64,000 nucleotides of DNA from Saccostrea cucullata (taxonomy: Eukaryota). How positions within the stretch are numbered: position 1 is the stretch's first letter; every line of letters begins with the position of its first letter. The translations under genes and the position numbers were made by a program. The DNA lies in contig NW_026924588.1 in NCBI RefSeq assembly GCF_032062105.1, positions 1 to 64,000 on the forward strand, given 5' to 3'. Below the pieces are notes generated by a model. That model was not told the DNA's origin. It saw only the letters and a list, made by a program, of their open reading frames with translations, and made no database searches. Positions 31,058 to 51,715 of this stretch are shown here, piece by piece.

Positions 31058-34000
31058 TTATCCATTCAATTTCTGTTTTCTCTCTTTTTCAAGACCCCTT
31101 AATGAAATTTTATTCCTCTTCAAAAACCTAGCCACCCAGTTCACATTTCCAGTGAAATTGTCAATTTTCAACATCTCTGCAAACTCAATTGCCTTTTGGC
31201 GTATGATTTCTATGGACAATTCACAACCCCACTCGATCTGTTCAAAAGACCAACTCTTTAACAAAGCATCGAGATCAGGCCAAGCACATCGACCTGGTTG
31301 AAGCTTCCTAAATTTCTTTTTACAACTTTTTTCAAGATTATTTTTCTGTTTTCTCCAGTAACGAATAAGTTTTTCGCTTACACCGTACTTTCGCTGGGCG
31401 GCCATATTATTTGTCTGCGTGGCATAGTTCGCCACCTCCAGTTTAAATTCAGAGGTGTAACTTCTTCTTTGTTCTGACCTGAAGTTCGATATGGCATTGT
31501 CTATCTCCTCATCTGTCATCAGAGACTTAAAAAGAAAAAAAATGACACATCAAGAGAGAATGACAATAAAATAGGAATACAGTAGTAGCTGCGCCATCTT
31601 TTTAAAAAAAAATTGTTGGGCTGCCCTCTCCTTACCGACTGACTAAAAAATGGGCCCATTCATTACTTTTTTTTTTAACAATCCAGGACAGGATTTTTTT
31701 TTTTCATTCTCTTACCCTTCAACAAGTCTTTTAAAACTTTCTGGGCTAAAAAAAAAAAATTCCAACCTACCTACCAACCAAATAATTTTATCCTGGGAGA
31801 GGGCAACAAATCATTATCTTAAAGATGGCCCCAAATACTATGGAGGATGTTGCTTTAACATGTGTCAGGATACTCTGTAATGTTTGTGTCAGGATACTCT
31901 GTAATGTTTGCGTTTACATGTGACATGATACTCTGTGATGTTGCTTTTACATGTGACATGATACTCTGTAATGTTTGCGTTTACATGTGACATGATACTC
32001 TGTAATGTTTGCGTTTACATGTGACATGATACTCTGTGATGTTTACGTTTACATGTGACATGATACTCTGTAATGTTTGCATTTACATGTGACATGATAC
32101 TCTGTAATGTTTGTGTTTACATGTGACATGATACTCTGTGATGTTGCTTTTTACATGTGACATGATACTCTGTGATGTTTGTGTTTACATGTGACATGAT
32201 GCTCTGTGATGTTGCTTTTATGTGACATGATACTCTGTGATGTTGCATTTACATGTGACATGATACTCTGTGATGTTGCTTTTTACATGTGACATGATAC
32301 TCTGTGATGTTTGTGTTTACATGTGACATGATGCTCTGTATATGTGACATGATTACAGATTATCTTTAATGTTTGCACATAAAATCTGTGATTTTGACAT
32401 ACATGTGATTATCTGTGTCACATGTAAATTCAACATTACAGAGTATCATGTCACATGTAAACGTAAACATCACAGAGTATCATGTCACAGGTAAACGCAA
32501 ACATTACAGAGTATCATGTCACATGTAAATGCAAACATTACAGAGTATCTTGTCTAGTTTATCTTATGATGTGCTACATGTATCTCTGTGAACTGATCTA
32601 GTTTTTACTTTAGAGCTAGATGGGTTATTATTGGAGTTTTATGAAGAGGCTTACTTTTACTTTTGACAGCTGACTTTTACATTTAGTAACTGGAGTTGGT
32701 CTATGTATAAACTGTAGAAGTCAGTCGTCGATTGTAAAAGTAAGCCTCTTCATAAAACTCCATTATGCTGTGTTGCTGCTTTCACAAAATTTAATACATA
32801 CCGTAAATCTGGAAATTTTTATGTTCCATTTTATTTTGCGAATTCCGGTAAAAAGGCTGTCTATTAACTTTAAAATTTCAAAATTTTGCAAATGACCACT
32901 GCTTTTTCTACATTTTTTTATTAGTAATCTATCTTTAAGAAAAATATTTTTGCGAATGCAATGAACTCGCAAATTTGCTAAAAATTTATCTACAGCAAAA
33001 ATTTCCAGATTTACAGTAGATATTAGAAGTCTTGATTTAAAAAGGTCAACTATAAACAAGAGGCCGATGGGCCACATCCCTTACCTGAAAAACTTTGGAT
33101 ATGCAGTTCTTTACCAGATATCCCCATTGTAATATCTATTGTGGACCTGCCCTACCCCTGGGGGTCATGGTTTGAACAATTTAGAATCTACACTACCCCA
33201 GGATGATTCCACATCAAGTTTCAGCTTTTGTGGCATAGTGGTTTTTGAGAAGAAGATTTGTTAATGACCCCACCCTACTTTTGTCTTCTCTTGATTATCT
33301 CCCCTTGGAAGAGGACTTATTAGCCCTTTATTTTCACAATTTAAATTCCCCTATACCCAATAATACTTTGTAGTAAGTCTGGTCAAAATTGGCCCAGTGG
33401 TTCTTGAAAAGAAGTTGAAAATGTGAAAAGTTTACTGACTGATGGACAGCTAGACAGACGGACGGACAACGTACAAGAAGTGATCAAAAAAAGCTCATTT
33501 GAGCTTTCAGCTCAGGTGGGCTAGAAATGTTTGTTTGTCCATCTTCGACTATAGAAAAAAAATTGGAGGGGTAGGTAGGTGGTATATAGGGTTTTTCTTT
33601 CAGAAAATTTCAGCATCAATCCTGAATTTTCAGAATCTGTTTTCTGGAATGCTTTAAAAAAGGTTCCAAGGAGGCTTAAAAAACAATTTAGAGATGAACC
33701 ATTTTAAGTCAGTCTTTTGGGAGAGCATAATTTAACAGTTTTTTTACAGACGGCCATATTTGTTGTTCTGTGTTGTTTACCTGTGACCCGGATGTGTGAA
33801 CATCATTTGCTGAGGATCCTTTAATGGAAAAAAGAGTGTCCTTTTCTTCCCTCCATTTCCAAACCAATTCCTTGTCAATATGTAATCTAAGAGCAGTTTG
33901 GTTGTTGCCGTGTTTTTCAGCATACAAGATTATTTTTCGTTTGAAATCTTCGGTATAAGGCCCATCCATTGAAGGTCGTGCAGAATCTTCCTGTTCATTT

Positions 34001-51715: not shown

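Follow-up and report, generated by a model that had tools for sequence, protein, structure and literature searches.

The stretch analyzed here, the first 64,000 nucleotides of contig NW_026924588.1 of Saccostrea cucullata (referred to below as the window), raises the question of whether a series of transposase-type DNA-binding modules encoded on its minus strand represents transposon remains or a host gene assembled from transposon parts and, in the second case, what the product of such a gene might do. The focal gene consists of 15 exons, with its ATG at 51715 and its stop codon at 31058 (Table 1), and every one of its introns has GT-AG borders. It is neither a transposon nor one of the 12 vertebrate domesticated pogo genes, and we consider it probable that it is a domesticated multi-module DNA-binding gene that acts as a sequence-specific regulator of chromatin or transcription. 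Judged from sequence comparisons, the protein is assembled from the DNA-binding modules of two pogo families plus a ubiquitin-like (Ubl) domain that is likely to be derived from IS3EU. An earlier note, made from the sequence alone, had described 15 phase-consistent exons carrying pogo-derived modules; the exon number and the pogo origin stand, but the base missing from exon 14 had escaped the note, and the sources comprise two pogo families and a likely IS3EU cargo gene.

Three paired helix-turn-helix (HTH) units are recognized by Pfam. Exon 8 (unit 1) matches CENP-B_N (1.7e-5) and HTH_Tnp_Tc5 (3.5e-9), unit 2 matches the same two profiles in exons 11 (8.3e-8) and 12 (6.2e-11), respectively, and exon 15 matches BrkDBD (1.1e-11) and HTH_Tnp_Tc5 (8.4e-11). 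The two psq-HTH plus CENP-B units that had been proposed are thus confirmed as two paired units, but their first HTH scores as CENP-B_N and not as HTH_psq, whereas the proposed Brinker-like plus CENP-B unit is borne out by exon 15. Against the structure of CENP-B (1HLV), exon 8 aligns with an E value of 4e-6 and exon 15 with 5e-5, and the match of exon 15 to Brinker (2GLO) is weak (0.087); it should be noted that the label "recognition helix" is based on the 2GLO alignment together with general knowledge of HTH folds. The lone HTH of exon 14 has no match in Pfam, but pairwise alignments relate it to three Passer-type transposases that are intact in the same genome (29-37% over 47-58 amino acids, E 5e-8 to 1e-6), in agreement with its earlier description as Brinker-like, and the composition of the linkers agrees with their description as acidic or Ser/Thr-rich. 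According to the available part of PMC7386202, the pairing of CENP-B_N with HTH_Tnp_Tc5 marks pogoR/Tigger transposases and the pair BrkDBD and HTH_Tnp_Tc5 marks Passer. Intact transposases of both kinds are present in the genome: the pogo transposase L022 (CENP-B_N, Tc5, and DDE_1) is 39% identical to exon 8, and the Passer transposases L005 and L007 (BrkDBD, Tc5, and DDE_1) are 46 and 34% identical, respectively, to exon 15. In a tree of 63 rows (8 seeds and the 55 best-scoring units), units 1 and 2, which may or may not go back to a single capture, group at only 95/69. Other elements of these families observed in the genome include a complete 3.65-kb Passer-type element with 28-bp terminal inverted repeats (TIRs) (L051, 2006-5655, G000:C566), together with many shorter copies of 1.65 kb that have exactly the same ends, and two 2.8-kb CENP-B_N-type pogo copies (L052, 1993-4806, and L054) that are 99.3% identical and have an intact transposase.

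The modules are not accompanied by a catalytic core, as the earlier note had also concluded: Pfam finds no DDE domain in proteins P0002, P0003, P0007, and P0009, and when three intact transposases were compared by tblastn with 104 kb of sequence (the window and a further 40 kb), no DDE remnant was revealed, the single match having an E value of 0.56. Within 3 kb, exons 7, 8, 11, 11-12, and 14 are not enclosed by any inverted pair; around the last exons the matches are either short and AT-rich or belong to unrelated repeats of the introns, and the miniature inverted-repeat transposable elements (MITEs) with pogo-like ends at the locus are located within introns. The exons might instead be independent transposon relics, and a related view is that two haplotypes were joined by misassembly; the fragmented assembly (23,869 contigs) and introns full of MITEs and repeats are compatible with both, but the spliced joins, the selection on the protein, and the absence of TIRs and of DDE sequence in these searches make them barely credible. 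In addition, the focal gene and a head-to-head paralog, described below, differ by a synonymous divergence (dS) of 0.37, and transcripts of both types occur in single RNA runs.

Focal exons 11-15 are spliced together in RNA, in accord with the co-transcription expected of a single gene. In contig 3 of X1, exon 11 occupies positions 299-571 and exon 13 positions 707-946 of the record, and the 135-letter gap between them equals the length of exon 12; the loose ends of RNA reads connect 34097 to exon 13 and 33781 to exon 15, so that exon 14 is joined on both sides. The exon joints are absent from the RNA joint table, which was filled by intronic repeats. The intron phases are 2, 2, 1, and 1, followed by ten introns of phase 0 provided that exon 14 is in frame, as had been stated for the introns from exon 5 onward. 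Phase 0 accounts for about one half of introns, and with a share near one half the chance of ten successive phase-0 introns is ∼0.0005-0.001. Exon shuffling had been proposed as the origin of the gene, but 2 of the 10 phase-0 introns lie inside domains (6/7 within the Ubl domain and 11/12 within unit 2) and are therefore not shuffling joints; the arrangement fits an origin in which pieces of transposases without introns were taken up as exons of phase 0. The gene has a low copy number, exons 1 and 7 each having at least two matches in the genome.

Substitution rates were compared between the focal gene and its paralog by the Nei-Gojobori method over 1228 codons, with bootstrap ranges. The ratio of nonsynonymous to synonymous substitution (dN/dS) is 0.24 in the domains (0.18-0.30; 676 codons), far from the value near 1 that would be expected of relics, and 0.54 in the linkers (0.41-0.71; 552 codons), with an overall value of 0.33. 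Individual domains give 0.15-0.27, except for exon 14, and neutrality is departed from at p < 0.05 in 8 of 9 regions, the exception again being exon 14 (0.46, p 0.098). By this measure the focal gene is under purifying selection. Two parts of the linkers, exon 5 and ∼27 residues of exon 13 (about 35720-35810, minus strand), are almost invariant among P0001, P0002, and P0003 despite their position; the exon 13 stretch, which is modeled as a helix, may be a partner-binding motif.

The paralog begins 287 bases from the focal start codon, and this spacer is a likely shared two-way promoter region. All exons of the paralog are colinear on one strand, and it has three alternative last exons, to which the RefSeq isoforms X2, X3, and X1 map letter for letter (71294, 75753, and 80104, respectively). 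Each is preceded by a pyrimidine-rich AG acceptor in phase 0, and the pairwise dN/dS values among them (0.33-0.38) indicate purifying selection. The two inner exons resemble each other at 85% and the outer exon at 55%; dS is about 1.0 between inner and outer exons and 0.42 between the outer exon and focal exon 15, from which the inner/outer split appears older than the split between the outer exon and exon 15, unless conversion has shortened the latter distance. The 18-residue HTH cores of the alternative exons share 12-15 residues, differing at 3-6 places. Only the outer type of last exon was found in the focal copy, counterparts of the two inner exons and of a 30-base micro-exon not being detected there; the corresponding site in focal intron 14 contains a 34-base tandem array with its last copies inverted (window 31846-32554). 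Single RNA runs contain both types of transcript, distinguished by 5 versus 33 differences in exon 7 and 3 versus 20 in exon 14, and the two copies are therefore not two haplotypes.

Exon 14 of the focal gene is 317 nucleotides long, one base short near 34032, as a result of which the joined frame stops after residue 1150. RefSeq isoform P0006 has the same length of 1150 residues and the same ending, and database proteins labeled Saccostrea cucullata LOC134266778, which match exon 8 at 100%, end at the same stop. In RNA, an extra letter near 34032 is carried by two of the six X22 reads, by two of the three X23 reads, and by the sole X1 contig in that region, the other reads being unresolved, and the X19 contig is 14 letters shorter across this part of exon 14 with the frame kept. 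The frame is also open through exon 14 in the paralog (1346 residues) and in a protein of S. echinata (1344 residues). Either a private allele or an error in the assembly most probably accounts for the missing base. An in-frame acceptor at 33990 was rejected, as it lacks a pyrimidine tract and the reads use 34097. An alternative is that the paralog on the plus strand is the working gene and that the focal copy is a duplicate in decay or cut short; this would account for the frameshift retained in three RefSeq isoforms, the 4.9-kb DIRS insertion in intron 1, and the missing counterparts of the inner last exons and micro-exon. However, three runs contain spliced, in-frame transcripts that are close to the focal copy, with 3-9 differences over 141-298 letters, and exon 15, which lies behind the break, has a dN/dS of 0.23, so that decay of the focal copy is improbable.

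The region formerly described as an uncharacterised domain, encoded by exons 6 and 7, is now predicted to have a ubiquitin-like (beta-grasp) fold. Residues 171-260 of the focal protein are modeled with a predicted local distance difference test score (pLDDT) of 84-91, and a clam homolog, P0033, which is 40% identical to the focal domain, is also well modeled. The closest structural match of the P0033 model is the ubiquitin-like domain of TBK1 (Z 8.1, root mean square deviation 2.5, 82 residues aligned), and nearly all of the 50 matches listed are ubiquitin-like folds, judged from their titles; SATB1 is one of many such matches (Z 5.3). The matches in Foldseek are to Ubl domains of SAP18, FERM, and USP7, and those in the Atlas are to unnamed clusters (0.87). 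When P0033 was used to query the genome, 19 matches were obtained from 25 candidates, 17 of them outside the gene pair and several near-identical over kilobases. At all three Ubl-copy loci for which a longer stretch was read, an integrase-type gene faces the Ubl copy (rva_4 E < 1e-76), and in one of the three a HECT match (4e-7) lies downstream on the strand of the Ubl gene. One such element, G000:C16830:34102-48481 (L046 and L047), is complete: it extends over 14.4 kb, has 231-bp TIRs at 90%, TATGG..CCATA ends, and a 6-bp duplication, and encodes an integrase-type DDE transposase (rva_4 E 6e-77). At the second of two loci tested, C7146, the 20 kb that were read revealed neither TIRs nor a 6-bp duplication. 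Such a duplication, together with TIRs and TA..TA termini, is given as a mark of IS3EU in the available parts of PMC10045372 and PMC12730594; in what was available of the main text of these papers and of PMC6839031, on IS3EU and GingerRoot, the term HECT is absent. Because the genome copies sit in IS3EU-type elements with integrase and HECT partners, the Ubl domain was likely derived from an IS3EU cargo gene and would represent a third transposon lineage. Multi-copy elements of IS3EU type, in which a SAM-Ubl-zinc finger-HECT-like gene faces a SAM-HTH-integrase gene, were seen at C16830 and also at C7146, C7274, C11145, and C14187.

The basic motif at the N terminus, in contrast to its earlier description as strand-helix-helix, has no match in Pfam or the Protein Data Bank (PDB), and its monomer model lacks a strand and consists of two helices of low confidence (pLDDT 31-51); its best Atlas match is unnamed (0.85). 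It may resemble the N termini of ZNF692/ZFP91-type proteins.

Intact relatives were found in S. echinata (1344 residues, one of two proteins with consecutive accessions) and in the paralog; informative sites on whether the duplication preceded the species split are mixed (9 group by species, 6 and 4 support the cross pairings). Word-based protein searches, which miss relatives below ∼45% identity, returned only Saccostrea proteins (4 of 476, 3 of 6974, and 4 of 7982 candidates), and among the best 150 of 1817 HMMER matches no other protein matched both the Ubl and HTH parts. In the 149 non-Saccostrea matches listed, Ubl and HTH matches are on separate proteins; 146 contain a unit, 22 have at least two units, and 20 of these 22 have no DDE match, although some may be fragments or mispredictions. 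BrkDBD was not found alongside the units in any of the 12 non-Saccostrea matches scanned with Pfam. An unnamed protein of 139 residues, P0014, has a motif and apparent exon borders in common with exon 8 (45-48%) and groups with unit 1 (100/96), so that restriction to Saccostrea is unproven and P0014 may be an older relative; a metagenome scan for P0014 gave 497 pattern matches, none of which was confirmed. The earlier view that the gene is lineage-specific can thus be retained for full-length relatives, which within the searches made appear only in Saccostrea, but it is qualified by P0014 and by the recurrence of the DDE-less multi-unit layout in other animals. No publication on the focal gene was found, although PMC10027918 may name related genes of oysters in its supplementary lists.

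For the focal protein as a sequence-specific regulator, the following mode of action may be envisaged. Each paired HTH unit would bind a DNA motif, as do CENP-B (1HLV) and the pogo transposases, Brinker (2GLO) being a weak analogue, and the long disordered linkers would allow a single chain to hold several sites. The Ubl domain or the N-terminal motif would link chains, as is described for the Ubl domain of SATB1 in the available part of PMC3351170. By analogy with the variable 3' exons of mod(mdg4), as far as the accessible text of PMC13490949 describes them, we infer that the choice of last exon in the paralog would exchange one DNA specificity while the constant body is retained. The same components could instead serve as a guard against transposons, in which the captured HTH units read the ends of living pogo elements and MITEs and block transposases or recruit silencing, the last exons covering different Passer families. 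Exon 15 and transposase L005 agree at 15 of 18 residues of the HTH core but at 31 of 81 in the part that follows it directly; the two inner alternative exons are nearer to L007 (11 of 18) than to L005 (9-10 of 18); the L005 family looks recently active, with 52 exact matches of a 26-base TIR pattern (control, 0); and intact CENP-B_N-type elements are also present in the genome. However, in any alignment of this kind the HTH core is the part most conserved, so that with three Passer transposases compared the match may reflect plain constraint; the alternative exons group with exon 15 on the tree (100/99) and not with L007; the nearest intact element of the genome has only about 39% identity to units 1 and 2; and Pfam scans reveal no known repressor domain. 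A guard function is therefore unlikely. Its most elaborate form, a switchable transposon-recognition system made wholly from transposon parts, with the Ubl domain as linker, two Tigger/pogoR units, and Brinker last exons tuned to different living Passer families, is more doubtful; if true, it would parallel the surveillance by KRAB zinc-finger proteins, but without zinc fingers and with isoforms switched as in mod(mdg4). The view that the protein binds satellite or centromeric repeats in the manner of CENP-B also has little to recommend it: CENP-B-related genes arose from pogo several times (PMC4231638, in the part available), and tandem arrays could be spanned by three paired HTH units, but neither a CENP-B dimerisation domain nor a DDE-like core appears in Pfam scans, and alternative DNA-binding exons suit a regulator better.

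Several observations weigh against a transcribed, selected, three-donor regulator and should be recognized. The joins of exons 1-10 and the use of the two inner alternative exons are supported by RefSeq models and intron positions (those of the paralog, in the case of exons 1-10) and not by reads, the RNA depth on exons is low (about 1-13 in the raw runs), and the runs come from other individuals or a sister species, the assembled animal being in none of them (word shares ≤0.21). Between the paralogs dS ranges from 0.11 to 0.90 by exon, a spread that hints at gene conversion and may blur the estimate of selection. For the Ubl domain, Foldseek gives no Ubl match at E ≤ 0.001 (best 2.7e-3) and a Z of 8.1 is within the range described by the tool as common; identity between the domain and the copies linked to IS3EU is only 28-35%, which leaves room for descent from a never-mobile host ligase gene.

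Table 1. Coordinates of the focal gene, its paralog, and neighboring features (positions in the window unless the contig is named)
Feature	Position	Strand	Basis or remark
Exon 1, start codon and basic 60-residue motif, fold unassigned	51534..51715	-	No Pfam match; low-confidence model; dN/dS 0.25
Exon 2, basic linker, phase 2-2	45140..45232	-	Counterparts in paralog and P0002
Exon 3, phase 2-1	44941..44999	-	Exon model, paralog comparison
Exon 4, phase 1-1	44266..44325	-	Exon model, paralog comparison
Exon 5, acidic, phase 1-0	43863..43951	-	Protein identical to that of paralog
Exon 6, first strand of predicted ubiquitin-like domain	43605..43670	-	Structure model
Exon 7, remainder of predicted ubiquitin-like (beta-grasp) domain	42810..43124	-	Kin to N-terminal part of IS3EU-borne HECT ligase genes
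Exon 8, unit 1 of pogoR/Tigger type, CENP-B_N with HTH_Tnp_Tc5	41980..42372	-	Pfam, PDB; dN/dS 0.15
Exon 9, acidic linker	41269..41502	-	Exon model, composition
Exon 10, linker	40646..40768	-	Exon model
Exon 11, unit 2, CENP-B_N and beginning of HTH_Tnp_Tc5	39707..39979	-	Pfam, RNA contig
Exon 12, remaining HTH_Tnp_Tc5 of unit 2	36343..36477	-	Pfam, RNA contig
Exon 13, 421-residue Ser/Thr-rich region, predicted disordered, one conserved helix	34932..36194	-	Model; dN/dS 0.60
Exon 14, acidic stretch and lone Brinker-like HTH	33781..34097	-	One base short near 34032 in assembly
Exon 15, BrkDBD and HTH_Tnp_Tc5 (Passer type), stop codon	31058..31525	-	Pfam, RNA; dN/dS 0.23
Spacer between the two start codons, 287 bases	51716..52002	.	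Sequence
Paralog exons 1-9 of 16	52003..61598	+	Continues beyond the window on G000:C6725 to 80586
Paralog alternative last exons, three	Contig 71294-71776, 75753-76235, 80104-80586	+	All open
DIRS-type tyrosine-recombinase retrotransposon, passenger in intron 1	45284..50167	+	Inverted end repeats with internal complementary region
Broken extra copy of end of last exon and 3' flank	16383..16753	-	Between two ankyrin genes

The DIRS element of focal intron 1 has open and overlapping frames for gag-like (45527-46834), reverse transcriptase/RNase H (46765-48891), and recombinase-like (48519-49703) products and is absent from intron 1 of the paralog. That intron contains two tandem tRNA-like stretches that are 86% alike and are perhaps heads of short interspersed nuclear elements (window 52962-53308), and intron 7 of the paralog contains a 1.3-kb self-inverted element (window 59048-60354). 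In addition to the broken copy listed in Table 1, another last-exon fragment is found at G000:C5058:5517-5711. Elsewhere in the window, the two genes of an inverted pair (3037-10685, plus strand, and 20199-26354, minus strand), 67-78% alike, encode nSTAND3 NTPases with ankyrin repeats, whose start we take to be DZIP3-like; each gene has one frame change in its long 3' exon, possibly an assembly error as in exon 14.

The domesticated pogo genes of vertebrates comprise CENPB, JRK/JRKL, TIGD2-7, and CENPBD1 from pogoR/Tigger and POGK and POGZ from Passer, and all 12 keep the DDE domain (PMC7386202, in the part available). They resemble the focal gene in being host genes with CENP-B_N plus HTH_Tnp_Tc5 or BrkDBD plus HTH_Tnp_Tc5 pairs and a nonsynonymous to synonymous ratio (Ka/Ks) below 1, but each retains DDE and derives from one transposase, whereas the focal gene has no DDE, several units, and two contributing pogo families. 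Thus, CENP-B, JRK, POGK, and POGZ, which the earlier note had offered as models, have the same domain pairs but are not close models, because all of them keep DDE. Retention of the DNA-binding module alone is a described route of domestication, exemplified by Drosophila cag and CG4570 in the accessible parts of PMC13548663 and PMC4231638. Transcription factors are known to have arisen when DNA-binding domains of transposases were captured; genes of this sort are numerous in molluscs, among them CENPB and HTH-psq factors (PMC10027918, as far as its available text goes). These Drosophila and mollusc cases are like the focal gene in having kept the HTH, lost the catalytic domain, and remained lineage-restricted. 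Several CENP-B-type units per chain are also found in proteins of Biomphalaria (P0010), Elysia (P0012), and Penaeus (P0011).

The variable exons of mod(mdg4) and lola encode FLYWCH or zinc-finger domains. In these genes, as predicted for the paralog from its RefSeq isoforms, a common N-terminal body is completed by one of a set of alternative 3' exons, but with 31 isoforms, as given in the accessible text of PMC13490949, compared with three variable exons, and the variable part of the paralog is a Passer-type HTH pair; the BTB domain that is a feature of mod(mdg4) and lola does not appear in Pfam scans. In SATB1, as described in the available part of PMC3351170, a Ubl domain precedes several helical DNA-binding domains and long disordered linkers, as is predicted for the focal protein, but the domains are CUT domains and a homeodomain, neither of which appears in the Pfam scans of the focal protein. 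The link to IS3EU and GingerRoot, as far as the available parts of PMC10045372, PMC12730594, and PMC6839031 define these elements, is through the Ubl copies of the genome in integrase-bearing elements, one of which has TA..TA ends and a 6-bp duplication, but the focal gene keeps the Ubl domain only and has no zinc finger, HECT, or transposase. Because this genome still contains intact members, with known TIRs, of the families that are the likely donors, recognition of parental ends by a domesticated HTH is directly testable here. From these sequence comparisons, a DDE-less multi-unit CENP-B architecture appears to recur in other animals. What is uncommon here is that one protein combines parts of probably three transposon lineages, among them a cargo domain that is not from a transposase, and that a young gene pair has a small array of alternative last exons.

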